From positions 64,797 to 128,796 of the forward strand of contig JBDRGY010000004.1 in assembly GCA_043817315.1 (NCBI GenBank): 64,000 nucleotides of DNA, read 5' to 3'. The notes under the pieces are model-generated. The model did not search any database. It had not been told where the DNA came from and was given only the letters and a program-made list of their open reading frames with translations. Positions 16,224-63,477 of this stretch are shown one piece after another; the first letter of the stretch is position 1, and the number at the start of each line of letters is the position of its first letter. The position numbers were made by a program, and so were the translations under genes. Origin of the DNA: Patescibacteria group bacterium. Lineage in GTDB: Bacteria; Patescibacteriota; Patescibacteriia; JBDRGY01.

Positions 16224-16311
16224 ACCCTTGGCGGGTTTTTTAATCTCTTGATTTTTACTAATTATAGTGGTAAGTTGGGGGGAGACGGGAGAAAATAACA
16301 GCGCCAAAGTC

Positions 16312-18413: not shown

Positions 18414-18416
18414 TTT

Positions 18417-19094: not shown

Positions 19095-19308
19095 TTATTA
19101 TCTATTTTTGTGCTATAATAAAAGTGTCTTAAAAATATAAACAAAAGGGGGATCTTGCACTACTTGATGCAGGATAAAAACACAAACAAATGCCTTTTGT
19201 TTTTGTAACAATTGATTTAGATTTAATAATTAATTACGCTTCTGTTTGAGGTGTTTTTTTAATGATATTAATTATGAGTATTAGATATTAGTAAAATGAA
19301 ACAAAAAC

Positions 19309-20703: not shown

Positions 20704-20717
20704 AGACTATTTTACCT

Positions 20718-41352: not shown

Positions 41353-42904
41353 TAGACCTTTTTTACTTCTGATCTTAGACGGCTGGGGGATTGCTCCGGC
41401 CAGCAAGGGTAATGCTATTAATCTGGCTAAAACTCCTGTCATCGACCGGCTAAGTAAGAAATACCCCCATACTACCCTGTGTGCCTCAGGTCCTTGTGCT
41501 GGTCTACCCAAAAACCAGGTGGGTAATTCTGAAGCCGGGCATATGAATATCGGGAGCGGAAGGGTAGTGGATCAGGAAGAGATGATCATTACCGAAAGCG
41601 TTGACGACGGTACTTTTTTCAGAAACCCGGCTTTTATAGAGGCGGTTAATCATGTCAAAAGGAACAAAACCAGTCTCCATATCATGGGACTATTGACCTA
41701 TGACCAGAGTCCCCATGCCGACCCAGAACATTTAATGGCTATTATCAAGTTGGCCCGCCAGCACCATTTACCCAAAGTAGTGCTACATTTATTTACTGAT
41801 GGCCGTGATTCACCCCAATTCGCTGCTATCAAGATTGTAAAGGATCTGGAAAAAAAGCTTTATAGTAATGAGATGATCGCTACTATAATGGGCCGTTTTT
41901 ATGCCATGGACCGTAATAAAGCCTGGAAGCGTACCGAAAAAGCGTATAACGCTATGGTTTTAGGCAAGGGGATCAAGGCTGGCTCAGCCGAAGAAGCTAT
42001 TTTGCATGCCTATAACCGTAAAGAGACAGATGAATACATCCAGCCCACAATCTTGATGCAGGACCACAAACCACCTCAAACCATACAAAACGGTGACTCC
42101 ATAATATTCTTCAATTTTCGGTCTGATAGAGCCAGGCAGATTACCAAAGCTTTCGTTCAAAAGAAATTCAACAAGATGAACCCAGGTTCATTCATCCGCA
42201 AAAAAGCCTTACGGGATTTACGGTTTATTGCTATGACTGATTTTGGTCCTGATCTGGACAATGTCTTGACTGCCTTTCCTTCTGAAGACCTGGAAGAAAC
42301 TCTGCCCATGCAATTAGCTGATTTAAAACAACTCTATACTTCGGAAAGCGAGAAGTTCGCGCATGTTACTTACTTTTTTAACGGAGGGTATGCTGATCCG
42401 GTAGGTGGTGAATCCAGGATTATGATACCCTCACCTTCTGTTGAATCATATGCTGAGGTTCCAGAGATGAATATTGAAAAATTGACCAAGGCAGTCCTCA
42501 AACATATCAAAAATGATGAATTCGATTTTATCACCTGCAATTTCCCCAATCCCGATATGGTGGGACATACGGGTAATCTTAAGGCCGGCATCCAAGCCGC
42601 TGAGGCAGTTGATAAGCATACGGGACTTTTGGTAAGGGAGGTACAGGCAAAAAATGGGAAGGCAATTATTACTGCTGATCATGGCAACTTGGAAAACATG
42701 ATAAATCTAAAAACGCAGGAAGTCCATACGGAACACACTACCAACCCAGTACCTTTTATAGTGGTAAGCCAGGACAGTAAGGGGTTCTCTTTAGGCAAAA
42801 AGGGTATCTTGGCCAATATTGCCCCGACAATTTTAGACTTGATGGAGAGAGATATCCCCAAACAGATGAAGAGTAAGAGTTTGATCAGAAAGAAAGCAAG
42901 ATAA
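41342..42904 (+). CDS. gpmI: 2,3-bisphosphoglycerate-independent phosphoglycerate mutase, copy 1
   Basis: 520 aa. It has LLILDGWGIAP, NSEAGHMNIGSGRVV, and a C-terminal MVGHTGN. Confidence 0.85.
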   Translation: MKANRPFLLLILDGWGIAPASKGNAINLAKTPVIDRLSKKYPHTTLCASGPCAGLPKNQVGNSEAGHMNIGSGRVVDQEEMIITESVDDGTFFRNPAFIEAVNHVKRNKTSLHIMGLLTYDQSPHADPEHLMAIIKLARQHHLPKVVLHLFTDGRDSPQFAAIKIVKDLEKKLYSNEMIATIMGRFYAMDRNKAWKRTEKAYNAMVLGKGIKAGSAEEAILHAYNRKETDEYIQPTILMQDHKPPQTIQNGDSIIFFNFRSDRARQITKAFVQKKFNKMNPGSFIRKKALRDLRFIAMTDFGPDLDNVLTAFPSEDLEETLPMQLADLKQLYTSESEKFAHVTYFFNGGYADPVGGESRIMIPSPSVESYAEVPEMNIEKLTKAVLKHIKNDEFDFITCNFPNPDMVGHTGNLKAGIQAAEAVDKHTGLLVREVQAKNGKAIITADHGNLENMINLKTQEVHTEHTTNPVPFIVVSQDSKGFSLGKKGILANIAPTILDLMERDIPKQMKSKSLIRKKAR

Positions 42905-44485
42905 ATGAATAAAAAACCTTTTCTCTTAATTATCCTAGACGGTTGGGGAGTGGCCTCTCCTTCCAGGGGCAATGGCATCAGTTTGTCTAATACCCCCAAC
43001 TTTACCAATTTGGTACAGACTTTTCCCACTTTGACTTTGCAAGCCTCGGGAGAAGCCGTAGGTTTGTCCTGGGGAGAAATGGGAAATTCCGAAGTGGGCC
43101 ACATGAACCTGGGCGGAGGCAAAGTGATTTTTCAGGAATTACCCAGAATTACACGTGCCATTTCTGACGGCAGCTTCCAAGAAAATCAGGGGCTCAATAG
43201 TGCCATAGAGCATGTCAAAAAAAATAATTCTAAATTGCATCTTTTAGGTTTGGTCAGCAACGGTGGAATTCATAGTTTTAATGAACACCTGTATGCCCTG
43301 GTGGAATTAGCCAAACAAAAGGAAATTAATCAGGTTTTTATCCATGTCTTTTTAGACGGGCGAGACACTCCCCACAACAGCGGTTTGACCTTTATTCAGA
43401 AATTACAGAATCATCTCAATGAAGTCGGGGTGGGCAAAATTGCCACAATATCAGGGCGTTTTTACGCTATGGATCGGGATAATCGTTGGGAGCGTACCCA
43501 GAAGGCCTACCTGGCCCTAGCCGAGGGGCAGGCCGATAATAAAGCGGATAATCCGGTTACCGCAGTTGAGCAATCATATAATCAAAAAATATATGATGAA
43601 GAATTTATCCCAACTATGATTATGGAAAACGGCCAGACAGTGGCCAAGATTGATGATAACGACGCCTTAATTTACTTTAATTTCAGGGCGGATAGGGCCC
43701 GGCAACTTACCAAAGCACTGATTTTGCCAGGATTTGAAAAATTTCAACGCCCCAGATCCTTAAAAAATCTGCACCTGGTTACTATGACCAAATATGAGAA
43801 AGATTTACCGGTGACCGTAGCCTTTCCCAAAGAAACAATTGAAAACCCGCTTGGCAAAGTGCTAGCTGCTAATAAAATGACTCAGTTTCATATTGCCGAG
43901 ACAGAAAAATATGCCCACGTTACTTTCTTCTTCAATTGCGGTAAGGAAGATCCTTTCAAGGGAGAGACCCGAGCTCTGGTTCCTTCTCCATCTGTGGCTT
44001 CATACGATCAAAAGCCAGGAATGAGTGCCAACGAAGTCAAAGACCGCTTGATCCAGGAAATTAATTCCGGTAAGCAAGATTTTCTGGTGGTTAATTTTGC
44101 TAACGCCGATATGGTCGGCCATACCGGTAATCTAGAGGCGGTGATCGAGGCTGTCGGTAAAATTGACGTTTATCTGGGAGAAGTGATCAAGGCTGTTTTA
44201 AAAACTGGAGGGTCCGCTATCGTTACAGCCGATCACGGTAATGCGGAAGAATTGGTCAACTTGCAAACAGGCGAAATTCACAAAGAGCACACCACCAATC
44301 CAGTTCCCTGTATCATTGTAGGAGAAGGCTGGAGGAAAACTTCTCCGAACGTAAAATCCGATGATCTAAGCAAGGTTGTCCCTATCGGAGTTTTGTCAGA
44401 CGTGGCTCCCACTATCTTGAGTATTATGGGTAAAGAGAAGCATCCGGAGATGACAGGGAGAGATTTATTGAACTATATTAAATAA
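42905..44485 (+). CDS. gpmI: 2,3-bisphosphoglycerate-independent phosphoglycerate mutase, copy 2
   Basis: 526 aa. It has LLIILDGWGVASP, NSEVGHMNLGGGKVI, and MVGHTGN. It is a tandem paralog of copy 1. Confidence 0.85.
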   Translation: MNKKPFLLIILDGWGVASPSRGNGISLSNTPNFTNLVQTFPTLTLQASGEAVGLSWGEMGNSEVGHMNLGGGKVIFQELPRITRAISDGSFQENQGLNSAIEHVKKNNSKLHLLGLVSNGGIHSFNEHLYALVELAKQKEINQVFIHVFLDGRDTPHNSGLTFIQKLQNHLNEVGVGKIATISGRFYAMDRDNRWERTQKAYLALAEGQADNKADNPVTAVEQSYNQKIYDEEFIPTMIMENGQTVAKIDDNDALIYFNFRADRARQLTKALILPGFEKFQRPRSLKNLHLVTMTKYEKDLPVTVAFPKETIENPLGKVLAANKMTQFHIAETEKYAHVTFFFNCGKEDPFKGETRALVPSPSVASYDQKPGMSANEVKDRLIQEINSGKQDFLVVNFANADMVGHTGNLEAVIEAVGKIDVYLGEVIKAVLKTGGSAIVTADHGNAEELVNLQTGEIHKEHTTNPVPCIIVGEGWRKTSPNVKSDDLSKVVPIGVLSDVAPTILSIMGKEKHPEMTGRDLLNYIK

Positions 44486-47972: not shown

Positions 47973-49046
47973 ATGAAAAAGACTAAAAATTCCGGAAAAA
48001 GAGTACTAGCTATAGGCAATGAAGCAGTAGTCAGGGCCGCTTTAGCAGCGGGGGCCACTGCTTTTTTCGGTTATCCTATTACACCGGCCACGGAAATTAT
48101 TGCTTTGTGGCCCAAGTACCAGCCTAAATTTAAAACCAAGTTTTTACAAACCGAAGACGAACCTTCAGCCGGTTTCACCTTGATCGGGGCGGTATTGGCC
48201 GGGGCCAAAGCCTTTACGGCCACAGCCGGACCAGGCACAGTCTTGATGCAAGATGCCTTTTCCATGGCTGAAGCCATGAGGATTCCGACTGTTGCTGTCA
48301 TCGTACAGCGAGGCGGTCCCTCAACCGGTACAGTGATCTACAGTCAACAGGAAGTGCTGCTGACCTGCTTCGGAGGGAATGGTGAGGGCTTTCGGGTAGT
48401 TTATTCTCCTTCCAATTTACAGGAGCTCTACGATTTGACCATTCAAGCCTTTAATACAGCTTGGCAATACCGTTTTCCCACTTTTGTACTCACTGACGGT
48501 TATCTGGGCAAAATGAGAGGCTTAGTGGAATTTTACGATCCCAAAAAGAAAAGAATGAAATTAGTGCCACCGGAACCGATCCTGCTCAACCCCAAGAAGA
48601 AAAAGGGTACCTATGTTAACATGGCTAATTGTGTCAATCTGGAAGAAGATATTTTTCAGATTAATGAAAAGATCAGAAAAGATTTTCAGAAATACCGCCC
48701 CCAAATCGAGCAGTACCAAGAATACAAAACTAAAGATGCTGAGATATTAATAATTGCTCACAGTATTGTGGGAGCGGCCGCTCAGTCAGCCATCGACACC
48801 TTGAGACAGCAGGGGATTAAAGTTGGTTTATTCCGACCGATTACTCTGCAGCCTTTCCCGGCCAAGGCGGCCCTGCAATTGGCCAAGTCAGTTAAAAAGA
48901 TTGTGATACCGGAATCCTCAGTTGGCCAGTTTATCAAAATTGTAAAAGAAGCTCTATACGGACTGAAAGTACCTATACAACATTACGCACGTCCTGCTCT
49001 GGGGATCACTGCCGAAGAGATTGTGGCTTTGATCAAGAAAAAATGA
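47973..49046 (+). CDS. 2-oxoacid:ferredoxin oxidoreductase alpha subunit
   Basis: 357 aa. The N-terminus reads GNEAVVRAALAAGATAFFGYPITPATEII. Confidence 0.8.
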   Translation: MKKTKNSGKRVLAIGNEAVVRAALAAGATAFFGYPITPATEIIALWPKYQPKFKTKFLQTEDEPSAGFTLIGAVLAGAKAFTATAGPGTVLMQDAFSMAEAMRIPTVAVIVQRGGPSTGTVIYSQQEVLLTCFGGNGEGFRVVYSPSNLQELYDLTIQAFNTAWQYRFPTFVLTDGYLGKMRGLVEFYDPKKKRMKLVPPEPILLNPKKKKGTYVNMANCVNLEEDIFQINEKIRKDFQKYRPQIEQYQEYKTKDAEILIIAHSIVGAAAQSAIDTLRQQGIKVGLFRPITLQPFPAKAALQLAKSVKKIVIPESSVGQFIKIVKEALYGLKVPIQHYARPALGITAEEIVALIKKK

Positions 49047-49609
49047 GCAGAAGAGGATTCACTCTAGTGGAGCTGTTGGTAGTAATTGCTATTATCGGTT
49101 TGCTGGCAACTCTGGCCTTCGTAAGTTTGAACCGGGCCCGGTCTCAGGCTCGGGATACAGTCCGAATGCAAGACCTTAGTGGTATCACTAAGGCCCTGGA
49201 GCTCTATTATTCAGAAAATGAAAGATATCCCAGCAGCGCTGATTGCTTTTGTGATGCAACATGTACCGATATTTGTGTATCCCTTTCAGATGACTGGATT
49301 CCTGATATGCAAAAACATATGCCCCAACTTCCCCTGGATCCTTTATATGGTCAACAGTCAGGAGGCGAATCCCTTCATTATGAATATAGGAGTTTTTATC
49401 CTGAAGCGAACCATTATTGTGAAGTATATGCCAGTGCCAGAGATTGTTTTGAAGATTCTGCTGATCTCGTAGATACTGATGGTATTCATTTGCCATTTTC
49501 CCCCTATCTTTTATGCCTGGTACTGGAAACCGATGTTGAACCAGATAATTATTATCGAATGGTTGGTACCAACTCATATAAATATTGCACCGGGCAATTC
49601 GAGCCCTAA
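49043..49609 (+). CDS. type IV pilin / pseudopilin-like protein 1
   Basis: It has the prepilin motif MSRRG|FTLVELLVVIAIIGLLA with a Glu at +5. The ATG overlaps the korA stop (ATGA). The C-terminus carries Cys pairs and LPLDPL. Confidence 0.75.
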   Translation: MSRRGFTLVELLVVIAIIGLLATLAFVSLNRARSQARDTVRMQDLSGITKALELYYSENERYPSSADCFCDATCTDICVSLSDDWIPDMQKHMPQLPLDPLYGQQSGGESLHYEYRSFYPEANHYCEVYASARDCFEDSADLVDTDGIHLPFSPYLLCLVLETDVEPDNYYRMVGTNSYKYCTGQFEP

Positions 49610-49641
49610 TAATTAAATTACGGTTTCGGTGGTAAGAAATA

Positions 49642-50217
49642 ATGGAACAAAAAAACAAAAAAGGATTTACCCTGATGGAACTGCTGATTATTGTGGGCAT
49701 AATCGGGATTTTGGCCTCGTTGGTTTTTTTTCGTCTCAATGTTGCCAGGGCTAAAGCACGAGATGCCATGCGGCTGACAGATATCGATGCCATTAAGAAA
49801 GCTTTGAGCCTGTACGACGCCGAATATTTCAAGTACCCCAGCAGCGCTAATTGCGACGGTTCCAATATGCATATATGTGAGTCTTCAGTAGAAAATTCTA
49901 CCTGGTTGGCTGATTTGGATCAGTATATGCCCAAACAGCCCCATGACCCCTTGCAGGCCCAAAATCCCCAGGCCTATCGTTACCGCTACCAGAGTTTTTA
50001 CGAGCACCTGCCCATTTATTGTGTAGATTTGCCAGATGATCTTTGTTGGTATCAGGAAACCCCGTATCCTTATTTCAAAAGATTAGACGGTGGTAAAGAG
50101 GAATTGGAACCCAGCCCTTTTATCTTGTGTTTCAAGCTAGAAACCAACATGAGGCCCACCCCCAATGTTTATCAGATTTGGGACAATCATGACCTTTACT
50201 GCACCGGTGAATGGTAA
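49642..50217 (+). CDS. type IV pilin / pseudopilin-like protein 2
   Basis: It has KKG|FTLMELLIIVGIIGILAS and the motifs LPxDPL (as PHDPL) and FILCFKLETN. Confidence 0.75.
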   Translation: MEQKNKKGFTLMELLIIVGIIGILASLVFFRLNVARAKARDAMRLTDIDAIKKALSLYDAEYFKYPSSANCDGSNMHICESSVENSTWLADLDQYMPKQPHDPLQAQNPQAYRYRYQSFYEHLPIYCVDLPDDLCWYQETPYPYFKRLDGGKEELEPSPFILCFKLETNMRPTPNVYQIWDNHDLYCTGEW

Positions 50218-50241
50218 AAAAATGTTACTTTGATATTTAAT

Positions 50242-50736
50242 ATGATAAAAAAACAAAAAGGGTTTACCCTCGTTGAATTACTAGTAGTTATCGGTATTAT
50301 CGGTATCTTGGCTACCCTCGTTTTTGTTAACTTGTCCTCCTCTAGGGCCCAAGCCAGAAATTCCGTCAGGTTAGCTGCTGTTGATGCTATGGTCAAAGCC
50401 CTTGAAGCCTATTATCAGGACTATGAATACTATCCTAGCAGCATGACAGCTGCTTGCCCTGTGACCTTCATATGCAATAGCACTGATGCAAATGTCTGGA
50501 TACCTGGATTGGCCGACTATATCAATAGCCTACCCCACGACCCTCTAGAAGAACGGTTTCTGGGATTTCTCTATATGTACACTACTAATCCCATATATAA
50601 TTTCATAGTTGGTGGGGATTTCCATTACATCTTGTTCTATTATCTGGAAGGTGAGGATCATCGGCAATTCCGGGGGAACTTATTGCAAGTTACAGCAGGT
50701 AATTCGTTTTACTATTATCATGTGCCCCTGGAGTAA
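50242..50736 (+). CDS. type IV pilin / pseudopilin-like protein 3
   Basis: It has MIKKQKG|FTLVELLVVIGIIGILAT and LPHDPLEE. The frame is open from a TTG at 50230. Confidence 0.7.
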   Translation: MIKKQKGFTLVELLVVIGIIGILATLVFVNLSSSRAQARNSVRLAAVDAMVKALEAYYQDYEYYPSSMTAACPVTFICNSTDANVWIPGLADYINSLPHDPLEERFLGFLYMYTTNPIYNFIVGGDFHYILFYYLEGEDHRQFRGNLLQVTAGNSFYYYHVPLE

Positions 50737-50759
50737 AAAAAATTGATTAACGATATTTA

Positions 50760-51248
50760 ATGAGGAAAAAACAAAAAGGATTCACTTTAGTCGAATTATT
50801 AGTAGTAATAGCCATTATCGGGCTTTTGGCCACGCTGGCTTTTGTTAGTCTGAATAGGGCGCGAGCCCAGGCCAGAAATGCCGTCCGGTTAGCTGATATT
50901 GATGTCCTGGTCAAATCCATGGAGGCCTACTATCATGAAAATGAAAAATATCCGCATGAGGATATTGGTGATGATTGCTATAACAGTACTTGTGCCAGTA
51001 CCTCAGGCGACAATTGGCTTCCTGGCTTAGATGAATTTATTAATCGCCTTCCCCATGATCCGCTTGAAGAAACAGGTGGAATGTTTTATATGTATGGGAC
51101 TAACCCTGGTTGGAACTTTTTAACAGGTGAAGACTTCCATTATCTCATATTATATTTTCTGGAGGGAGAAAACCACTCAGAATTTCGAGGAAATTTCTGG
51201 CAAGTTTCAGGAAGCAATTCGGTATATTACTACTATGTGCCACGGTGA
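50760..51248 (+). CDS. type IV pilin / pseudopilin-like protein 4
   Basis: It has MRKKQKG|FTLVELLVVIAIIGLLAT and LPHDPLEE. Confidence 0.75.
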   Translation: MRKKQKGFTLVELLVVIAIIGLLATLAFVSLNRARAQARNAVRLADIDVLVKSMEAYYHENEKYPHEDIGDDCYNSTCASTSGDNWLPGLDEFINRLPHDPLEETGGMFYMYGTNPGWNFLTGEDFHYLILYFLEGENHSEFRGNFWQVSGSNSVYYYYVPR

Positions 51249-51277
51249 TAATCAAAACCCTTTGATATTTATTTTAG

Positions 51278-51799
51278 ATGAAAAGCAAACCTAAAGGTTA
51301 CGTCTTGGTTGAGCTATTGGTAGTAATCACCATTATTGGTATAATATCAACAGTCGCTTTTGTTTCTTTAAACTCAGCCAGAATTCAGGCCAGGGATGCT
51401 ACCCGTCTGCACGATATCGATAATCTGATGAAATCTTTTGAAGTCTACTACGCCGGGGAAGAGGGATATCCCAGTAGTGTGGGGTGTAATTTTAGCGGGA
51501 CCTGTCCGCCAGACTGGAATTGCGCCGATATCTGCGGGTCTAATGGTCAAGACGATTGGTTACCAGACATGAATATCTATCTGGAAAAATTGCCATCTGA
51601 TCTGTTGAATGAAAGAGGATTTCCTTACCACTACTTCTACCTTAATCCTACCCAGGGTTGGCTAGATACCTCCGGTAATCCTATTCCCGATAGTCCCTAT
51701 CTTCTCTGCTTTGTCCTAGAAAAAGAAATGGAACTGGATAATGCCCACCGCCATCAACAATTAGGTAATAATTTATACTGTAAAGGATTATTTCAATAA
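51278..51799 (+). CDS. type IV pilin / pseudopilin-like protein 5
   Basis: It has MKSKPKG|YVLVELLVVITIIGIIST with a Glu at +5, LPSDLLNE, and YLLCFVLEKE. Confidence 0.7.
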   Translation: MKSKPKGYVLVELLVVITIIGIISTVAFVSLNSARIQARDATRLHDIDNLMKSFEVYYAGEEGYPSSVGCNFSGTCPPDWNCADICGSNGQDDWLPDMNIYLEKLPSDLLNERGFPYHYFYLNPTQGWLDTSGNPIPDSPYLLCFVLEKEMELDNAHRHQQLGNNLYCKGLFQ

Positions 51800-51800
51800 A

Positions 51801-52526
51801 ATGATAGAACCCAAGTTTCCTAAATCAGTCAAAGCCGCTTCCAAGCCTCACAATTTTTGTCCGGGCTGCGGCCACCCCATCGTCTTACAGGCGATCGGGG
51901 AGATTATTGATGAATTAGGTCTGCAGGACAAAACAGTAGTCGGTCTGGATATCGGCTGTTCACTGCTAGCCTGGGACTTTTTTGACATTGATTCTACCCA
52001 AACGCATCATGGCCGGACCGGTCCGGTTATCTCAGGGTTCAAGAAAGTGAAACCGGAGAGTATTGGCATTATTTACATGGGAGATGGTGGTGCTTATGCT
52101 ATCGGGGCACAGCATCTGGTCAACGAAGCCATGCGCAATGAACCGGTAACTGTCATCGTGGTCAATAATTCCCTGTATGGAATGACCGGCGGACAGGAAG
52201 CACCCACCTCCATGCCTGATCAGGTAACCACTACAACCCCCTTTGGCGCTGACCAGAATTTTCTCAAAGGTCCGGAGATGGTGGCTGGTTTGACCAACAG
52301 CGAAGCTTATGTGGCCAGGGGCACTATCGATAACCCTATTCAGCTGAAATCTTTCATCAAAAAAGCGATTAAAAATCAGATGAAGGGAAAAGGCTTTTCT
52401 TTTGTGGAAGCGCTTTCGGTTTGTCCCACCAACTGGAAAACCGATGCCAAAGAGACATTTCAGTTTCTCAAAAAGATGAAAGCCACTTTTCCGGTCCAAG
52501 AGTTTAAAATTCCCAAAGGTTTATGA
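51801..52526 (+). CDS. 2-oxoacid:ferredoxin oxidoreductase beta (TPP-binding) subunit
   Basis: It has CPGCGHPIV and a TPP-binding motif (GDGG-type). Confidence 0.8.
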   Translation: MIEPKFPKSVKAASKPHNFCPGCGHPIVLQAIGEIIDELGLQDKTVVGLDIGCSLLAWDFFDIDSTQTHHGRTGPVISGFKKVKPESIGIIYMGDGGAYAIGAQHLVNEAMRNEPVTVIVVNNSLYGMTGGQEAPTSMPDQVTTTTPFGADQNFLKGPEMVAGLTNSEAYVARGTIDNPIQLKSFIKKAIKNQMKGKGFSFVEALSVCPTNWKTDAKETFQFLKKMKATFPVQEFKIPKGL

Positions 52527-53098
52527 ACCAAGATAAATATAAAATCGTAATAGCCGGTGAGGGCGGCCAAGGCGGTCAGACTATAGCCAAGATATTACTG
52601 GAAGCCGCCTACCGCAAGAAAATGGAAGTTTCTTACATTCCTAATTTTGGTGTAGAACAAAGAGGTGGAGTTTCTGTCGCCTTTGTCCTCTTAAGCAAAG
52701 AAGAGCCGATTGTCTATCCCAAATTTGATAAAGGAGATATCGTTGTTATCCTATCGGAACGATCGGTTAAGAGGACGCTGCGCTACGTAGACAAGAAAAC
52801 GACAGTTATCTACAACAGTACCTTTATTAAAAACTCCAAACCGATCAAGAAAGCAGCTAAAACGGTTATCGGCATTGATGCCACTACTATCGCCAAAGAA
52901 CAGCTGTCACCTAGAGTGTTTAATACAATAATATTGGGCAGTATAGCTGCCCAGCTGCAAGTAATCACCTTAAAGCAGATTCAGTCGGCGGTAAAAACCA
53001 CCTTAGGTCATAAATTCAAACAGAAACCCAAGTTGGAACAGCTAAATTTGCAGGCCGTAGAACTGGGATATGATTTAGTTACCAAGAATAAAAAATGA
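52523..53098 (+). CDS. 2-oxoacid:ferredoxin oxidoreductase gamma subunit
   Basis: 191 aa. The N-terminus VIAGEGGQGGQTIAKIL is typical of the POR/KOR gamma subunit. Confidence 0.7.
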   Translation: MNQDKYKIVIAGEGGQGGQTIAKILLEAAYRKKMEVSYIPNFGVEQRGGVSVAFVLLSKEEPIVYPKFDKGDIVVILSERSVKRTLRYVDKKTTVIYNSTFIKNSKPIKKAAKTVIGIDATTIAKEQLSPRVFNTIILGSIAAQLQVITLKQIQSAVKTTLGHKFKQKPKLEQLNLQAVELGYDLVTKNKK

Positions 53099-57116: not shown

Positions 57117-57148
57117 CTAAAATTAGCGAAAATATCGCTAATTTTAAG
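57117..57148 (+). promoter_or_regulatory. Near-perfect 32-nt palindrome (ctaaaattagcgaaaatatcgctaattttaag)
   Basis: It is an inverted repeat, ttagcga-N6-tcgctaa, with extended arms. It is followed by a T-rich stretch. It could be the rnhA terminator or an operator for the downstream aldolase-like gene. Confidence 0.35.
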
Positions 57149-57245
57149 TTTGTCGTAAATTAGTCCCTATTTGTGAGCAGCATATTAGGGAAAAATGATA
57201 GCCATAGTTAGTTTTAGCAGCAGTTCTTTTACAAAGGGGTCTTCC

Positions 57246-57896
57246 ATGAGTGAGAAGTTTAGGGGAACCAGTTTCTCCGAGTGGACCTACGTGCCGGGAG
57301 AAATCAGCAACGGCTATTACAGTCAACTGGCCGAGCTAGCAGTTTTGGGCCGTTTCTTGATCGGAATATTGCCCATTCCGCCAGGGGATATTGCCAATGC
57401 CGGTAATCTCAGCTTTCGCACTGAAAAGGGCTGTGTGATTACCCGGTCAGGCTGTAGTATCAAGCATCTGGATCCTGAAGATCTGGTAGAGGTGATAGGC
57501 TGGGATGAGCCGGCCTGGAAACCGACTTGCCGCAGCCCAGCACCCAACGAACCGTCTTCTGAGACCGGTGCTCATCTGGCCATCTACAAAGCCAGACCAG
57601 AGGCAAACGTAATCGTCCATCTGCACAGTCAAGAGATGGTAGCTTGGGCTGTGACTATCGGGGCAGCGATGACCCAGCAAGAATTTCCCTATGGCACGCT
57701 GGAGTTTGTCCGCGAGATAATCAGAGTGCTGAAGCAGCACGATATTGTCTGCCTCTGCGGACCAGAACACATCGGTTTCTTTGCCCTAGGGAGAGACTTC
57801 AAGCAGGTCAAACAAGCCATCGAGCAAGCGCTGGCCAAGATAGCGGAGTCTCGTTCTCACCTCGGATCGGTTGCGACACCCCCATGTCGTTCCTAA
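57246..57896 (+). CDS. class II aldolase/adducin-family protein
   Basis: It aligns by eye to FucA/MtnB-type proteins: ANAGNLSFR, PSSETGAHLAIYKARPEANVIVHLHS (compare PSSEW..H...Y..RPDANAVVHNHA), and GPEHIGFFALG. The frame is open from 57195. Nearly all third-codon positions in this gene are G or C, so it is GC-rich. Confidence 0.7.
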   Translation: MSEKFRGTSFSEWTYVPGEISNGYYSQLAELAVLGRFLIGILPIPPGDIANAGNLSFRTEKGCVITRSGCSIKHLDPEDLVEVIGWDEPAWKPTCRSPAPNEPSSETGAHLAIYKARPEANVIVHLHSQEMVAWAVTIGAAMTQQEFPYGTLEFVREIIRVLKQHDIVCLCGPEHIGFFALGRDFKQVKQAIEQALAKIAESRSHLGSVATPPCRS

Positions 57897-57973: not shown

Positions 57974-59839
57974 ATGATCGAAAGAATGGTAATGAATAGT
58001 GAGAGCCTCCAGGAGAAACTGCCGGATGTTTACAGAGAGTTTTTTTCTAAGTCAGAAGTTGTCTGTTCTACGTCTGGAAATTTTTACTGGGTAGGTGATC
58101 ACGCTGTAACTTATGGAGGGCTTAGTATCGTCCAAAAACTACCGCTTAGGGCCCGGGTAGGACTGGAGCCAACATCCGATAACAAAATAGTTTTCGGTGA
58201 TTGGCTTTTTTTAGTTCCTTCCAAGGGTATTTTTGAAAAAAAGGATATTGGCAGAACCATAGAAAGTAAAATATCCAAATTACTAAAACAGGAGATCGCC
58301 AGTAAAATTGGACAGGATAATTATACAGGTTTTAAAATCCATTGTTTGGTAGAGATACCAACTGAATGCGGCCTTCACTCATCAGGGGCTATTGCCTCCT
58401 CCATTGCTTTGGCAATATTTATAAAATTTGGCTTGGCCCGGGAAGAAGAAATTGCTCAATGGAAAAACATCAATTCCCGCCAACTGGCTTCCGATAAAAA
58501 GAATAAATTTGACGCGATTTTCCGTCTGGCCTGGAAGATAGAATCAGTTTTCCACGCTGATGCCTCTTCAGGACACGGCCCTTTTTCTTCACTATTGGAT
58601 TCTACTTATCCGGTAGTCTATTTTACTGAACCCAGATCGGGTGATTATGATGAGCATCCCTGGACTAGAATGCCCTCTAATCTAAAGGGAAATTATGACC
58701 TATTAGACGATATGCAGTACTGGGGTTATCGCATGAATGACATATTTGATCTAAAAAAGCTGGATTCCTGGCCCATTGAATTTGGCCTGATTTACAGCGG
58801 TGTCAGAAATAACACTTCAGCCATCATCCGATCCATGAGTGATCTTAAGGGTCGTCTGGAGGACATTTCTTCTAACATGAAGAATTTATTGGAAGAAAAT
58901 GCGGATCTTTCCAAAGTAAAGCCGATTCTTTATGACATGGTAGTTAAACAGGGGGGTTACGGCTATTGGAAAAGATGGGTGGAATCGCTGTCAATAATTT
59001 CTTCCAAAACCCTGATTTCTTTTATGGAACTTTTCAAGCAGGGTTCCACTGACCGTGTCTTAAAGAGCTTATTTGATTCTTTAAACCAGTATCATGAAAT
59101 GCTGCATTTATTTGAAGCCTCCAAGCCGTTTCTAGATAATTTATGCAATTCCCTGAGAAATTTCGGCCAGGAATATCTCGGTGAAACTATTGCCGCTAAA
59201 CTGACGGGTGCTGGTCGCGGCGGTGACGTACTATTTGCGGCTCCCTATGGCACCTTTTACGATTCTATCAGCAAATTGATGGTCAATTTAAAGAAAGACT
59301 GCGGTGAGGATATTTGGTTGGATTATGCTTCTTGGCGCGATGGAATAGGCGGTGAAGGCGGAACCGTCGATCAAGACCTGTCTCATAAGATTTATTCTGA
59401 CTTTGTTTCCGAAGGATCAGTTTTTATCAGAATCTGGGAAAACAATCATACCCCCAAGACAGAGGTAATAACCCTTGAAGAATTTGATAACCTAAAAGAA
59501 GAAATTGATTTGTTGGTGGATAAATCTGCCAATAAAGTCTATGTCAAAGGGGAGCTCCTGACCTCCAAAGAAATCCATTCATCCAAAGTAACAGTAGAAG
59601 TATTGGATATATTGTTAAAAAATATTTCTAAACAAGTACCGGCTTCTCAATTTCCCCCATCATCATACATTGATCGTAACGAGATGCAGTCCAAAATCGT
59701 GTCGCCATTAATCAACGTTATTAAGAAAAAAATGAATAAAACTCTGCCCCTGGTTATTCGCGGCGGCTTGCGCAAGAATTTCTATATGAAGATTGACCCC
59801 GATGATCTGACTATTGCTTTAATCGATAAAAAGTTCTAA
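57974..59839 (+). CDS. large GHMP-kinase-family protein
   Basis: 621 aa. It has GHMP motif II (PTECGLHSSGAIASSIALA) and motif III (AKLTGAGRGGDVLFAAP). An insert of roughly 250 aa sits between the two motifs, and the C-terminus is long. Confidence 0.55.
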   Translation: MIERMVMNSESLQEKLPDVYREFFSKSEVVCSTSGNFYWVGDHAVTYGGLSIVQKLPLRARVGLEPTSDNKIVFGDWLFLVPSKGIFEKKDIGRTIESKISKLLKQEIASKIGQDNYTGFKIHCLVEIPTECGLHSSGAIASSIALAIFIKFGLAREEEIAQWKNINSRQLASDKKNKFDAIFRLAWKIESVFHADASSGHGPFSSLLDSTYPVVYFTEPRSGDYDEHPWTRMPSNLKGNYDLLDDMQYWGYRMNDIFDLKKLDSWPIEFGLIYSGVRNNTSAIIRSMSDLKGRLEDISSNMKNLLEENADLSKVKPILYDMVVKQGGYGYWKRWVESLSIISSKTLISFMELFKQGSTDRVLKSLFDSLNQYHEMLHLFEASKPFLDNLCNSLRNFGQEYLGETIAAKLTGAGRGGDVLFAAPYGTFYDSISKLMVNLKKDCGEDIWLDYASWRDGIGGEGGTVDQDLSHKIYSDFVSEGSVFIRIWENNHTPKTEVITLEEFDNLKEEIDLLVDKSANKVYVKGELLTSKEIHSSKVTVEVLDILLKNISKQVPASQFPPSSYIDRNEMQSKIVSPLINVIKKKMNKTLPLVIRGGLRKNFYMKIDPDDLTIALIDKKF

Positions 59840-59862
59840 TTTAATTAAACTTTTCCCATAGA

Positions 59863-59888
59863 AACGGGCCTTTAGGTCCGTTTTTTGA
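59863..59888 (+). terminator. Rho-independent terminator
   Basis: acgggcctttaggtccgttttttg. Confidence 0.55.
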
Positions 59889-59971
59889 TTTGTCTTTTCT
59901 TTTTTCCACTTCCGTCTCTATTTGTCCTTATGAGGTAAAGGGAGAATGAAACTGGTAATAATTTTTCTATT

Positions 59972-60199
59972 ATGATCAAACCAAAAGTCAATTTAGGTTC
60001 CAGGGTGTTGGTGGAGACAGTGGGGCGCCATTACCGTTTCCACATTGTTGATAGCCAGAAAGCTGATCCCACTAACGGTAAGATTTCCGGAGAATCGCCA
60101 ATAGGCCGTGCCCTGCTGGGCCACGGACGCCGGGAAAAGGTTAAAGTCAACCTGTTCAACGGGGAAACAGTTGATTATAAGATCGTCCGAGTCTATTAA
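59972..60199 (+). CDS. GreA/GreB C-terminal domain protein, stand-alone (second copy)
   Basis: 75 aa. KISGESPIGRALLGHGRREKVKV matches the GreA C-terminal consensus. Confidence 0.6.
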   Translation: MIKPKVNLGSRVLVETVGRHYRFHIVDSQKADPTNGKISGESPIGRALLGHGRREKVKVNLFNGETVDYKIVRVY

Positions 60200-60244
60200 A
60201 AACACCGGTTTTCAATATGTAGCTCTTTGAAAAAGGAGGTGAAA

Positions 60245-60367
60245 ATGCTGAATGGTTGTTTGCCGCAGTACTGCCAAAGGTGCGATTCCAGGCTATTGGG
60301 CATGGCTCCCTGTGTGGAGATCTGTCGCCATTGCCTAAAGAGGCTTAAAGATGCGGGGAGGTATTAA
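60245..60367 (+). CDS. small Cys-rich protein, 40 aa (sORF1)
   Basis: MLNGCLPQYCQRCDSRLLGMAPCVEICRHCLKRLKDAGRY has 8 Cys arranged as CxxxxCxxC...CxxxCxxC. A strong AAAGGAGGTG ribosome-binding site lies 5 nt upstream. Confidence 0.5.
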   Translation: MLNGCLPQYCQRCDSRLLGMAPCVEICRHCLKRLKDAGRY

Positions 60368-60368
60368 A

Positions 60369-60467
60369 ATGGCAGACCCAGGATTGGAAGAAATCGTGGA
60401 AGCGCTCTGGGAGACAGTGACCTTGCCGATCAAGATCATCTCCGAGATTCTTGGTGGCGATGAATAG
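60369..60467 (+). CDS. small acidic peptide, 32 aa (sORF2)
   Basis: MADPGLEEIVEALWETVTLPIKIISEILGGDE. It starts 1 nt after the sORF1 stop, which suggests translational coupling. Confidence 0.35.
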   Translation: MADPGLEEIVEALWETVTLPIKIISEILGGDE

Positions 60468-60540
60468 TGTTCGCCTAGTGACGTAGATTGGGGACATGGG
60501 CCCTACCCATGTTGGGATAGCCACTGGAAAGGAGTTGGAA

Positions 60541-60717
60541 ATGGATTTTACCTTTACTCCCCCGGAGAACTGTAAACAATGCATCAGATTTTCCAGGGCT
60601 GATGGTAATGTTTGCCCCGACCAGTACAGTTGTCCCCACGAAGGTACAGACCCTGGTCGCATCGTTAAGCGGCCCAAACCGCCACCCGATCATATGGGAA
60701 TCTTTCGGGATTATTAA
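60541..60717 (+). CDS. small Cys-containing protein, 58 aa (sORF3)
   Basis: A GGAAAGGAG ribosome-binding site lies upstream. The sequence is MDFTFTPPENCKQCIRFSRADGNVCPDQYSCPHEG.... It is followed by a terminator hairpin. Confidence 0.45.
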   Translation: MDFTFTPPENCKQCIRFSRADGNVCPDQYSCPHEGTDPGRIVKRPKPPPDHMGIFRDY

Positions 60718-60736
60718 ACTCTGTAACCTGTGGATG

Positions 60737-60780
60737 GAGCTGTTCATCTCAACCAGAACTGAACAGCTGGCTTCTTTTTG
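60737..60780 (+). terminator. terminator hairpin (copy 1 of a repeated element)
   Basis: ggagctgttca...tgaacagctggcttcttttt. Confidence 0.5.
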
Positions 60781-60821
60781 GGCCAAGTTACCGCTAAATC
60801 ACAATCCGAAAGGAGACGGAA

Positions 60822-61109
60822 ATGGAGAGCTACTCCGTAGAAGTCAGTCATGAATGGGGCATGTCTCACCCCTGGCACGGCGAGCCTGATCCTTGTCAGA
60901 TGTGCAGCAGGGGAGCCATGTTCGGTTGTGTCGGCTGCTACTACTATCATGAGAGGCGCGAGCCCAATCCCTACGAGCCCTGGCCCTATCCCAAGCCATA
61001 CGAACCTTATCCCAGGCCGTATGGCCCGGGTCCTTTTCCCGATTGGCGGGTGCCGCATTATGCCCAGCCGTTCGGGATGACGGTTTCCGCTGGAATGACC
61101 TGTTATTGA
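60822..61109 (+). CDS. small Cys- and Pro/Tyr-rich protein, 95 aa (sORF4)
   Basis: An AAAGGAGACGG ribosome-binding site lies upstream. It has CQMCSRGAMFGCVGC followed by the proline/tyrosine repeat PYEPWPYPKPYEPYPRPYGPGPFP. Confidence 0.45.
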   Translation: MESYSVEVSHEWGMSHPWHGEPDPCQMCSRGAMFGCVGCYYYHERREPNPYEPWPYPKPYEPYPRPYGPGPFPDWRVPHYAQPFGMTVSAGMTCY

Positions 61110-61119
61110 TCGATTTATA

Positions 61120-61165
61120 GAGCTGTTTACCTCAAGCAGAGCCAAACAGCTGGCTTGTAACTTGA
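61120..61165 (+). terminator. hairpin (copy 2 of the repeated element), a weaker terminator
   Basis: agagctgttta...ccaaacagctggcttgtaa. It is homologous to copy 1 with compensatory changes in the stem. Confidence 0.4.
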
Positions 61166-61207
61166 GCCAAGTCACTGACTAGCGGTAGTACTCTAAGGGA
61201 GGATAGA

Positions 61208-61507
61208 ATGGCTCCGACGGCTGCGGGCTTTGGTGGCCCGCTGGTTCCGGGAGGTCCGAGTGGTCCGATGAATCCTTATGATTCCGGACCGGTTTTCCAC
61301 CAGGCTGATCAGTTCGATTGTCACGTTGACGTTTTTGGAAACGTCGGTGTGATGGGACGCGATACGGCCTATATGGAGACTCCCAACTTCATCGTCGAGG
61401 ACACCTTCGTTGGCAGCTTCATGCAGGGTTCTCAGGCCTTCGATGACACCAGAGACCTGGAGATCATGGGTCCGGGTGCCAGACTTACCTCGATCACTCC
61501 GCTCTAG
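61208..61507 (+). CDS. small Gly/Pro-rich protein, 99 aa (sORF5)
   Basis: A TAAGGGAGG ribosome-binding site lies upstream. The N-terminus is MAPTAAGFGGPLVPGGPSGP and the C-terminal half is acidic. Confidence 0.45.
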   Translation: MAPTAAGFGGPLVPGGPSGPMNPYDSGPVFHQADQFDCHVDVFGNVGVMGRDTAYMETPNFIVEDTFVGSFMQGSQAFDDTRDLEIMGPGARLTSITPL

Positions 61508-61519
61508 GGGTTTTCCGGG

Positions 61520-61552
61520 GTTCGGGGCAGCATCAATATGCTGCCCCTATTT
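61520..61552 (+). terminator. Rho-independent terminator
   Basis: ggggcagcatcaatatgctgcccc followed by tatttttatt. Confidence 0.65.
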
Positions 61553-61555
61553 TTA

Positions 61556-61583
61556 TTGACAAAATCGGGTTTTCTGGTATGAT
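61556..61583 (+). promoter_or_regulatory. sigma70-like promoter for rnpB
   Basis: TTGACA, a 16-nt spacer, then TATGAT. The predicted transcription start is about 7 nt upstream of the RNase P P1 stem. Confidence 0.6.
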
Positions 61584-61590
61584 ACATTGT

Positions 61591-62071
61591 GCCCAAGTAG
61601 GCTGGATGATCGCCCCGCCCAATTCTTGAATCTTAACCTTTTAACGCTAGGATGCAGGAATTGGGCGGGGAGGAAAGTCCGAACACCCCCTGTATCGTAA
61701 GATGCGGGGAAGTAGACAGTCTGGAAATCAGACCGGGAGTAGATAAAGTTAGAAGTCCTATAGCCTTCTAGTTTTTTCAAAGCCCAGGGAAAGTGTCACA
61801 GAGACTACACTGCCGATGATCCCGTTCGGCTCTGCCGAGAGGGAAACAGGTGATGGTGAAAAGAGTGGGGTAAGAGCCCACAATCTGACCTGGTAACAGA
61901 TCAGAGCTGATAAACCCTGTCTGGTGCAAGACCGAATAGGCCCCTTGACCCAAAAGGGTCTACGGGGCGGGTAGGTCGCTTGACCCTTAAGTCCAGCTTG
62001 CTGGACCGGGGCTAGATAGATGATCGTCACCCCTTCGGGGTACAGAATTCGGCTTATAGGCCTGCTTGGGC
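61591..62071 (+). ncRNA. rnpB: RNase P RNA (bacterial type A)
   Basis: The P1 stem pairs gcccaagtaggc with gcctgcttgggc. The P4 5' strand is GGAGGAAAGTCCGAAC and the P4 3' strand is ACAGAATTCGGCTTATAG. The conserved GGTGAAAAGAGTGGGGTAAGAGCCCAC...GGTAACAGA block is present. Confidence 0.8.
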
Positions 62072-62085
62072 TAATTTGAGATTTT

Positions 62086-63477
62086 ATGAAAAAATCAGAA
62101 TTATTTTTCAGCGCCTTATTGGTGCCAGTTGATTACCTGATGATCGTACTGGCGGCTTTAGCTGCTTACGGTTTGCGGTTCGGATCTGCTTTTACCGACA
62201 TCATACCGGTAATCTACGAAATTCCCTTTCGGGAGTTTTTTAATATTGTGTTAATAGTAGCTGTTGGTTGGATAGCTATCTTCGCTCTGTCAGGCCTTTA
62301 CAACATGAGAGGCCAAAGAAAGAACTTCCAAGAGATTTCCAAGATATTTTTTGCTTGCTCGACAGCCATCATGGCGGTTATCATTTTTATATTTTTTCGA
62401 CGTGAGTTTTTTTCCTCTCGTTTTATAATTTTGTCTACCTGGTTTTTTAGCATCTTCTTTGTCAGCTTGGCTCACTTGATCATCAGGGCGATCCAGTCCG
62501 GATTTTATCGACGGGGGATCGGAATTCATCGACTTGTTGTGATCGGGCAAGATACTGTAGCTGAGGATTTTATCAAACAGATTTACCGCAAGCCCAATCT
62601 GGGACTAAAAATTGTGGAGCGCTATCCCCAGTTTGACGATAAGGTTAAGAATAGAATGAGGGAAATGGCCGAGGACGATAAAATCGATGAGGTTATTCTA
62701 GCTGATGCTAATATGGTCAAAGAAACAACTTTGGATTTGATCGACTTTTGTGATGAATACCATCTGGTCTTTAAATACGCCGCTGATCTTTTCGAAGCCC
62801 AAGCCACTAATCTGGAAGTGCAAACCATCGCCGGCATTCCCATAATTGAAATTAAGAAGACTTCTTTGGAGGGTTGGGGTAAGGTCAGCAAGAGAATGTT
62901 CGATATCTTCTTTTCGGTGATTATCGGATTGATCCTGTCACCAATTTTTCTTTTAATTGGAATAATCATCAAGATTGATTCCAAGGGTCCTATACTGGTA
63001 CAGCTACAGCGGGTCGGGAAGGGAGGTAAAGTGTTTACCCTTTATAAATTTCGCTCCATGATCAAAGATGCCCACTCTTTAAAAAAAGATTTATTGAGAT
63101 TTAACGAAAGAAGAGACGGGCCTTTATTTAAAATGAAACATGATCCTCGAATAACCAGGGTGGGGCGCTTTCTTCGCAAATCCAGTTTGGATGAATTTCC
63201 GCAACTGATCAATGTGATCAAGGGTCAGATGAGTATGGTGGGGCCACGTCCCCATGAGCCAGAAGAGGTGGCAAGATACGATAAGCATCATAAGAAGCTA
63301 CTGGCTATTAAACCGGGCTTGACCGGATTGGCCCAAGTATCAGGCCGTTCTGATTTAGGTTTCGAGCAAGAGGTAAAATTGGACACCTATTATATTGAAA
63401 ATTGGTCGGTCAGACTAGATCTGCAAATCATATTTAGAACTCCTTTTATATTAGTAATACCCAGGAAGGCTCCCTAA
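62086..63477 (+). CDS. polyprenyl-phosphate sugar phosphotransferase (bacterial sugar transferase, WbaP/CpsE-like)
   Basis: 463 aa. It has N-terminal TM helices and the C-terminal family block KRMFDI...KIDSKGPILVQLQRVGKGGKVFTLYKFRSM...DGPLFKMKHDPRITRVGRFLRKSSLDEFPQLINVIKGQMSMVGPRP. Confidence 0.85.
   Translation: MKKSELFFSALLVPVDYLMIVLAALAAYGLRFGSAFTDIIPVIYEIPFREFFNIVLIVAVGWIAIFALSGLYNMRGQRKNFQEISKIFFACSTAIMAVIIFIFFRREFFSSRFIILSTWFFSIFFVSLAHLIIRAIQSGFYRRGIGIHRLVVIGQDTVAEDFIKQIYRKPNLGLKIVERYPQFDDKVKNRMREMAEDDKIDEVILADANMVKETTLDLIDFCDEYHLVFKYAADLFEAQATNLEVQTIAGIPIIEIKKTSLEGWGKVSKRMFDIFFSVIIGLILSPIFLLIGIIIKIDSKGPILVQLQRVGKGGKVFTLYKFRSMIKDAHSLKKDLLRFNERRDGPLFKMKHDPRITRVGRFLRKSSLDEFPQLINVIKGQMSMVGPRPHEPEEVARYDKHHKKLLAIKPGLTGLAQVSGRSDLGFEQEVKLDTYYIENWSVRLDLQIIFRTPFILVIPRKAP

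Follow-up and report, generated by a model that had tools for sequence, protein, structure and literature searches.

Five Shine–Dalgarno-led small open reading frames downstream of a GHMP-kinase-like candidate regulator in a Patescibacteria genome

The stretch of DNA analysed here (hereafter the window) comprises 64,000 nucleotides of contig JBDRGY010000004.1, positions 64,797 to 128,796, in the metagenome-assembled genome (MAG) of a Patescibacteria group bacterium (GCA_043817315.1). Towards its end, at 60245-61507, five open reading frames (ORF1 to ORF5) lie in series on the same (+) strand and cover 78% of 1.26 kb, flanked on one side by a gene for a stand-alone GreA C-terminal domain (GreA-C) and on the other by rnpB, with genes for a class II aldolase-family protein and a GHMP-kinase-like protein (hereafter the kinase-like protein) further upstream (Table 1). 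An initial annotation, made from the letters of the window alone, had described this cluster, and its outline was confirmed: the five tandem ORFs have the lengths and positions it gave, ORF2 starts 1 nt past the ORF1 stop, ORF4 holds the repeat PYEPWPYPKPYEPYPRPYGPGPFP, and the region between the GreA-C gene and rnpB is GC-rich (0.49-0.58 vs. ~0.40 for the host); of the eight cysteines claimed for ORF1, we count six. On balance, and with some reserve, we lean towards reading ORF1 to ORF5 as genuine small-protein genes that form an operon with GreA-C and represent lineage-specific cargo in a slot regulated by the kinase-like protein.

The five ORFs carry a coding signature that is atypical of their surroundings. 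Shine–Dalgarno (SD) sites lead all five, four matching over at least 6 nt and the fifth with GGGAGG, whereas an SD match of at least 6 nt was found in just 2 of the 48 long ORFs in the window, and the flanking genes (RNase H, aldolase, kinase-like protein, GreA-C and a sugar transferase) have none. The initial annotation had credited four of the five ORFs with a textbook SD, which holds for those four, but ORF2 also has one (GGGAGGT). GC content at third codon positions (GC3) is 0.61-0.65 in ORF1, ORF2, ORF4 and ORF5 against ~0.43 in host genes, ORF3 showing no such signal, and the antisense ORFs that overlap the region, some of them long, carry no SD. A similar signature occurs at 15660-16223, where a 187-aa ORF has a perfect SD (AAGGAGGTG), a GC3 of 0.68, no Pfam match and an N-terminus that looks hydrophobic; it is possibly a membrane protein and perhaps a further acquired gene.

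The cluster is covered at more than 99% identity by two short contigs of other samples (L013 matching window positions 59917-60995 at 99.4% and L001 matching 61099-62378 at 99.6%) and is therefore not a chimera or an assembly artefact; the strain is also present in ENA ERZ24794676 and ERZ24794679. Within the ORFs the two independent assemblies differ from the window by one synonymous and one non-synonymous change, the latter being D50N in ORF3 of L013. ORF1 is identical in L013 and L014, and an alternative 38-aa form of ORF2, starting at 60351, was called on L013.

The SD and start region of ORF3 recur in ORF4, and behind each of the two ORFs lies a two-hairpin spacer module; the two modules are homologous over ~65 nt each, with a compensatory change from C-G to T-A, and have no further copy elsewhere in the window. 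The shared start regions together with the homologous spacers suggest that the unit of SD, ORF and hairpins is a cassette that was duplicated and then diverged in its coding part. Apart from these discrete hairpins, the spacers fold no better than usual. Paralogy among ORF1, ORF3 and ORF4 themselves was considered and set aside, as their alignment shares just P-x-x-C-x-x-C, the second Cys pair and the terminal Tyr, which is suggestive but not demonstrable as homology. A terminator scan found no terminator between 59885 and 61524, and because none separates them, GreA-C and ORF1 to ORF5 are read as one operon; rnpB, which has its own promoter behind the strong terminator that closes the cluster, is a neighbour outside the small-ORF unit.

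The initial annotation had also raised the possibility that the upstream kinase takes part in modifying the products of the cluster. A link between the two seems to hold, but the protein looks like a regulator, not a modifier. When its C-terminal 144 aa (residues ~478-621) were searched as a profile against the PDB, only DNA-binding response regulators of the OmpR/PhoB type matched (E 0.026), and the AlphaFold2 model of this part (predicted local distance difference test score, pLDDT, 91) had BaeR, SaeR, DNA-bound AdeR, DNA-bound ToxR and PhoP as its top Foldseek matches, with BfmR and PmrA also found; Pfam itself gave no match to the winged helix. Its N-terminal ~470 aa are GHMP-kinase-like, and no phospho-receiver domain was found at the N-terminus. 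By sequence profile and predicted fold, the kinase-like protein is probably a transcription factor rather than a modifying enzyme, and its GHMP-kinase-like input, where a response regulator would have a phospho-receiver, would make it a one-component regulator instead. We found no description of a GHMP-kinase–winged-helix fusion, or of the small-ORF island, in the literature.

At most of the kinase loci we compared, de novo motif discovery detected tandem T-rich direct repeats with a period of ~11 bp directly after the kinase gene. Held-out testing placed the 200 nt that follow the gene first among all segments of the locus in 14 of 41 loci, and at p<0.05 in 21 of 41 (ca. 2 expected). When a position weight matrix built only from the relatives was run over the window, position 59909, within the putative operator downstream of the kinase gene, ranked 5th of 128,000 positions. 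The 12-mer core of the repeat, GTCYCTATTTGT, occurs exactly twice in the 64 kb against 0.03 expected, at 57163-57174 upstream of the aldolase and kinase genes and at 59914-59925 upstream of GreA-C. This placement on both sides of the aldolase-kinase genes suggests that the regulator acts on its own genes as well as on the unit downstream.

Recurrence of the slot was followed through orthologues of the kinase gene, collected at 35 GTDB Patescibacteria loci and on metagenome contigs, which span the Patescibacteria classes; a first kinase scan of genomes found nothing, since neither this MAG nor its 74% identical relative belongs to the GTDB-representative set. Some MAGs have two or three paralogues (L017 and L029 in Berkelbacteria; L026, L035 and L039 in a single Saccharibacteria MAG), and in L034 a tandem second copy is present. 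The 1.2 kb downstream of the kinase gene show a 6.7-fold enrichment in SD-led small ORFs (0.50 vs. 0.074 per kb), with at least one present in 15 of 40 loci, and a comparable SD precedes only 15% of the long genes in the kinase loci. Several small-ORF families are conserved as proteins at this position: a Cys-rich family of 80-94 aa (L005, L020, L026, L021), another Cys-rich family of 72 aa (L009, L018), a Gly/Pro-rich family of 56-64 aa (L002, L043) and a family of 78-89 aa (L007, L035). L018 repeats the order seen in the window, with the kinase gene followed by GreA-C (Pfam E 9e-12) and a zinc-ribbon-like ORF. The slot just downstream of the kinase gene thus holds variable SD-led small ORFs in many lineages. 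A ThiF gene was also observed downstream of the kinase orthologue in L008.

The closest relative (L002; GCA_018818805.1; 74% identity) keeps the order RNase H, aldolase, kinase, GreA-C, with 61% identity in the aldolase and 80% in GreA-C, and has a distinct GC-rich, SD-led 56-aa ORF between the kinase gene and GreA-C. Its three assemblies (L002:3648-3685, L003 and L004:3555-3603) all stop ~40-50 bp past the GreA-C stop codon, where the small-ORF cluster of the window begins, and this could reflect strain-level variability at the slot, with the caveat that the three may share reads.

Table 1 Features of the small-ORF locus and its surroundings (window coordinates).
Feature	Position	Strand	Description
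Putative operator, copy 1	57148-57180	+	TTTGTCGTAAATTAGTCCCTATTTGTGAG; upstream of the aldolase and kinase genes; block conserved in the closest relative (L002)
Class II aldolase-family gene	57195-57896	+	Pfam Aldolase_II E 7e-21; GC-rich, GC3 0.57; no SD
GHMP-kinase-like protein with C-terminal winged helix	57974-59839	+	621 aa; GHMP_kinases_N/C and weak mevalonate-kinase matches
Intrinsic terminator of the kinase gene	59860-59885	+	fold z = -3.4
Putative operator, copy 2	59889-59930	+	~4 T-rich direct-repeat units, ~11-bp period: TTTGTCT / TTTTTCC / CCGTCTC / TTTGTCC
Stand-alone GreA C-terminal domain gene (GreA-C)	59972-60199	+	75 aa; Pfam GreA_GreB PF01272 E 5e-16, positions 4-75 of 77
ORF1	60245-60367	+	40 aa; 6 Cys: C5, C10xxC13, C23, C27xxC30; SD AAGGAGGTG; C-terminal Tyr
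ORF2	60369-60467	+	32 aa; acidic, probably helical; SD GGGAGGT within the 3' end of ORF1
Hairpin between ORF2 and ORF3	60493-60513	+	fold alone not significant, z = 0.26
ORF3	60541-60717	+	58 aa; C11xxC14...C25x5C31, then Pro/Lys-rich tail; SD AAGGAG; C-terminal Tyr
Two-hairpin spacer module, copy 1	60737-60784	+	H1 60738-60768, H2 60769-60784, then T-run; z = -2.75
ORF4	60822-61109	+	95 aa; C25xxC28-x7-C36xxC39, then Pro/Tyr-rich repeat tail; SD AAGGAG; ends Cys-Tyr; ABIB97_03400
Two-hairpin spacer module, copy 2	61120-61168	+	H1 61121-61151, H2 61152-61168
ORF5	61208-61507	+	99 aa; Gly/Pro N-terminus (residues 1-22) predicted disordered, predicted all-beta core; SD GGGAGG; ABIB97_03405
Intrinsic terminator closing the cluster	61524-61557	+	strong; 10-bp stem and T-tract; fold z = -3.0
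rnpB including promoter	61556-62072	+	promoter TTGACA-16-TATGAT, near-consensus; RNA match 61594-62072, 184 bits

Relatives could be recovered for ORF5. A word-indexed search of 5.8 billion proteins returned only its self-match, but exhaustive searching with HMMER gave three relatives of 70-77 aa (P0018, P0020 and P0021; E 5e-5 to 4e-4, 35-41% identity), which share the aligned motif VDxFGNV...SRAF...QIxGP...T.L; a fourth match was a spurious repeat protein and was discarded. The AlphaFold2 model of ORF5 has a beta-meander core (pLDDT 82-85 over residues 30-70) and no significant match in the PDB (best E 0.47), and judged by this model together with its scattered relatives, ORF5 is a member of a rare, horizontally dispersed family of small proteins with a predicted beta fold. 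P0020 sits in a same-strand array of nine small ORFs of unknown function, three of them CxxC-rich (95, 67 and 121 aa). The AT-rich 4.1-kb contig L015 (1-4122) consists entirely of same-strand unknown small ORFs, among them the ORF5 homologue and three CxxC-rich proteins with 9, 4 and 14 Cys and no Pfam or PHROG match; it may be a piece of an uncharacterised mobile element or a further island of small proteins. The 95-aa ORF of L015 shows a weak resemblance, at its N-terminus, to ORF3 (E 0.06).

The initial annotation had named a lack of conservation across genomes as the observation that would speak against the ORFs; no relatives were found for ORF4, and ORF5 has the three just described. The small ORFs have no match in Pfam, NCBIfam, PHROGs or PADLOC, and ORF1 none in the PDB either. 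Searches of phages by tblastn with ORF5, of viral contigs with the ORF5 family, ORF4 and an L015 protein, and of plasmids by blastn with the cluster all returned nothing. Two likenesses were not upheld as homology: that of ORF5 to the Gly/Pro-rich family of L002 and L043, apparent by eye (BLAST E 0.9, hhalign probability <1%), and that of ORF4 to L043_65, which is compositional only (E 8.9). The architecture of ORF4 does recur in L043 at 1781-1978, where a CxxC...CxxC protein has a Pro/Tyr-rich tail, with homology not demonstrable.

Zinc-ribbon mini-proteins had been proposed for the cluster, and the paired-knuckle layouts that this requires are present in ORF1 (C10xxC13/C27xxC30), ORF3 (C11xxC14/C25x5C31) and ORF4 (C25xxC28/C36xxC39). 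The family assignment did not follow, since no zinc-ribbon model in Pfam or NCBIfam matched (for ORF1, DUF7577 reached E 0.8), a PDB sequence search with the small ORFs gave nothing, and the positional analogues in L043 and L018 have sub-threshold zinc-ribbon matches only. The spacing of their cysteines makes metal-binding knuckle proteins a plausible reading of ORF1, ORF3 and ORF4, of which two have Pro-rich tails. All three Cys-containing ORFs also end in Tyr (ORF1 ...AGRY, 60362-60364; ORF3 ...FRDY, 60712-60714; ORF4 ...MTCY, 61104-61106), and the Gly/Pro-rich ORF beside the ORF5 homologue in L015 likewise ends ...TGRY.

We infer from this arrangement that GreA-C and ORF1 to ORF5 would form a single transcription unit of ~59.95-61.55 kb, in which a strong ribosome-binding site would drive each ORF in a genome that hardly uses SDs, ORF2 translation would be coupled to that of ORF1, and the relative expression of the ORFs would probably be set by the hairpin modules, through mRNA stability or partial termination. 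The kinase-like protein may sense a small phosphorylatable metabolite and, by its winged helix, may bind the direct repeats at 59889-59930 and those upstream of its own aldolase-kinase operon, thereby controlling expression of the small-protein cargo. Other lineages fill the slot with other GC-elevated, SD-led small ORFs, which include zinc-ribbon-like mini-proteins and GreA-C domains and, now and then, a radical SAM enzyme. The recurrence of GreA-C there leads us to favour the products as RNA-polymerase-associated or host-interaction factors, and the foreign SD and GC signature together with the scattered ORF5 family suggests that the cargo is exchanged horizontally. A bolder version of this model, which we put forward as tentative and rather doubtful, is that an undescribed one-component regulator of Patescibacteria (a GHMP-kinase-like domain joined to an OmpR-type winged helix, often in several paralogues) binds direct repeats at its own gene and switches on a hypervariable, horizontally exchanged island of mini-proteins that retunes RNA polymerase or mediates host-cell interaction, the five ORFs being one lineage's cargo.

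A number of observations weigh against reading the cluster as kinase-regulated cargo. The putative operator of the window was itself marginal in the held-out test (p ~0.08), and the direct-repeat motif is T-rich and adjoins terminators. The Foldseek matches to OmpR-type domains, consistent and with probabilities up to 0.96, have modest E-values of 0.013-0.5. ORF4 matched only itself in the search of 5.8 billion proteins, and ORF1 to ORF3 have no relatives among the 51 related loci fetched, the large protein database not having been searched with these three. No homologue of ORF4 or ORF5 is present among the called proteins of the closest relative, whose contigs end right after GreA-C. In the source record, where a single locus tag lies between the kinase gene and ORF4, ORF1 to ORF3 appear to have been left unannotated by the Prokaryotic Genome Annotation Pipeline (PGAP), and the ratio of non-synonymous to synonymous substitution rates is not estimable, because just two polymorphisms fall inside the ORFs.

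Some of these same observations would be expected if the cluster were a remnant or a 'moron'-like cargo of a mobile element or phage, acquired horizontally beside rnpB and with no functional tie to the kinase-like protein. Neither the SD usage nor the GC3 is that of the host, ORF4 and ORF5 are missing among the closest relative's called proteins, where synteny breaks immediately past the GreA-C stop codon, and the array around P0020 is phage-like; P0018 has a Prim-Pol/D5 primase-helicase and a ParB-methyltransferase as neighbours on a high-GC contig, and a metagenome scan recovered only that contig again. Yet neither an integrase nor att-like repeats nor any further mobile-element gene lies nearby, searches of viral contigs, phage genomes, plasmids and PHROGs gave no match, and the finding of SD-led small ORFs downstream of the kinase gene in many lineages argues for a defined slot and not for random insertion. 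We regard a remnant of this kind as rather unlikely, although the two readings overlap in part, a horizontal origin of the cargo being compatible with both. A further possibility is that ORF1 to ORF4 are untranslated, the segment being a structured RNA, a leader or trailer of rnpB or decaying sequence, and ORF5 the sole gene. This would fit the absence of homologues for ORF4 and, in the fetched loci, for ORF1 to ORF3, the PGAP calls of ORF4 and ORF5 only, the missing GC3 signal of ORF3, the long antisense ORFs, and the tendency of structured RNAs to form GC-rich islands in AT-rich genomes. However, Rfam gave no match in 59800-61600 even at E up to 1 and spacer folding is unremarkable beyond the discrete hairpins, on which grounds the structured-RNA reading was rejected; in addition, every ORF has a correctly spaced SD where SDs are rare and the antisense ORFs have none, the arrangement of ORF1 and ORF2 fits translational coupling, rnpB is separated by a strong terminator and its own promoter, and the analogous SD-led small ORFs of other lineages are conserved as proteins. 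We consider an untranslated segment improbable.

The initial annotation had suggested that the small ORFs encode precursors of a system for ribosomally synthesised and post-translationally modified peptides (RiPPs), with a leader ending in GG, and it had called for a search for radical SAM, YcaO, LanB/LanM and C39 peptidase partners. In its fullest form this would have the kinase-like protein, perhaps with the aldolase, modify the products, the winged helix acting as a peptide-recognition element, and it could draw on the Cys-rich products, on the consistent adjacency of the kinase gene and small ORFs, and on the terminal Tyr of ORF1, ORF3 and ORF4, which, we presume, recalls C-terminally processed precursors such as mycofactocin MftA. 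It could also draw on the slots of L005 and L025, where a small ORF is followed by a radical SAM gene. Among the Pfam-scanned genes (~40 genes of the window, from 36 kb to the window end and at 0-30 kb, with the genes at 29.5-36.3 kb left out), however, no radical SAM enzyme, YcaO, LanB/M, C39 peptidase or ABC exporter was found from 36 kb to the window end, and the only radical SAM protein in the scanned genes is a B12-binding one at 1354-3003, 57 kb away; the scanned genes otherwise encode central metabolism, pilins, pyruvate:ferredoxin oxidoreductase, hydrogenase and histidine kinases. No NCBIfam precursor family matched the small ORFs, whose products are mutually unrelated in sequence, and ORF1, ORF3 and ORF4 share no leader. 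ORF2 (...ILGGDE) has two residues only past its GG and therefore no core peptide, ORF4 and ORF5 are 95-99 aa long and ORF5 is predicted to be folded. The top matches of the kinase C-terminal domain include no PqqD-type recognition element; they are DNA-binding OmpR/PhoB domains, by sequence and by fold and among them DNA-bound AdeR and ToxR, and direct repeats in the DNA accompany the gene. The GG-leader precursors and their partner enzymes were thus not borne out, a RiPP cluster at this locus was rejected for want of a maturase, protease, exporter, precursor family or leader/core layout, and precursors modified by the kinase-like protein seem to us very unlikely. The slots of L005 (9912-11443) and L025 (6523-8276) look like better RiPP candidates than the cluster of the window; the small ORF of L005 contains 11 Cys, and its radical SAM enzyme a Cys-rich C-terminus, which we read as SPASM-like.

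The rest of the window yielded several side observations. The rnpB match is 479 nt long on a model of 367 positions, so that this RNase P RNA carries sizeable lineage-specific insertions, and the rnpB promoter has two between-sample polymorphisms, at 61577 and 61581. At 47973-53095, genes for pyruvate:ferredoxin oxidoreductase subunits (POR_N/PFOR_II at 47973; TPP_enzyme_C and POR at 51801-53095) enclose one unknown gene and a tandem set of four (49043-51245) whose products have type IV pilin-like N-terminal methylation motifs. A paralogous pair of neighbouring genes at 41342-44482 encodes cofactor-independent phosphoglycerate mutase (520 and 526 aa). A run at 16267-26252 comprises a 935-aa 7TM-GAF histidine kinase and three proteins with HisKA_7TM alone, with two unknown ~500-aa proteins and a ThiF-family protein interspersed.

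Patescibacteria are abundant and mostly uncultured episymbionts with tiny genomes, and little is known of their regulation and of the factors by which they interact with hosts. The locus offers a candidate for a phylum-wide regulator, whose sensor domain is unusual and whose operator is recognisable, next to variable small proteins that stand out by their atypical translation signal. Were this confirmed, the locus would open a way to study conditional gene expression in these bacteria and supply a rule for finding small-protein genes missed by annotation pipelines, as with the unannotated ORF1 to ORF3; it also corrects a tempting but unsupported reading of the cluster as a RiPP natural-product locus.

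Several known systems resemble parts of the locus. Integron gene-cassette arrays likewise repeat units of ribosome-binding site, small ORF and imperfect hairpin with conserved flanks and divergent coding parts, but here no integrase is found among the neighbours, the hairpins lack the attC R''/R' cores GTTRRRY/RYYYAAC and only two units share flanks; with neither integrase nor attC cores found, the integron-cassette reading was rejected. RiPP clusters such as those of SCIFF/ranthipeptides, sactipeptides and mycofactocin have in common with the locus the tandem small Cys-rich ORFs, three with a C-terminal Tyr, and, in two other lineages, a radical SAM gene in the equivalent slot, and differ in the maturase, protease, exporter, precursor-family match and leader/core layout that the locus lacks. 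ORF1, ORF3 and ORF4 resemble the small zinc-ribbon and zinc-knuckle proteins (Pfam DZR, Zn_Ribbon_1, zn-ribbon_14) in having CxxC-type pairs 7-13 residues apart in proteins of 40-95 aa; a Pro/Tyr-rich repeat tail sets ORF4, like L043_65, apart from these, and ORF1 has two extra Cys. With the secondary-channel factors GreA/GreB and Rnk the first gene of the unit, as in L018, shares a clear GreA C-terminal domain; unlike GreA/GreB, the 75-aa GreA-C of the window has no N-terminal coiled coil with an acidic tip reaching the RNA polymerase active site (its NCBIfam matches fall only at model positions ~80-157), and it is therefore no canonical cleavage factor. The kinase-like protein resembles OmpR/PhoB factors (PhoB, BaeR, AdeR, ToxR) in the winged helix predicted over its C-terminal ~110 aa and, as these factors bind tandem direct repeats, in the ~11-bp-period repeats that adjoin its gene, and it differs from them in its input domain, a GHMP-kinase-like fold of ~470 aa standing in place of the phospho-receiver.

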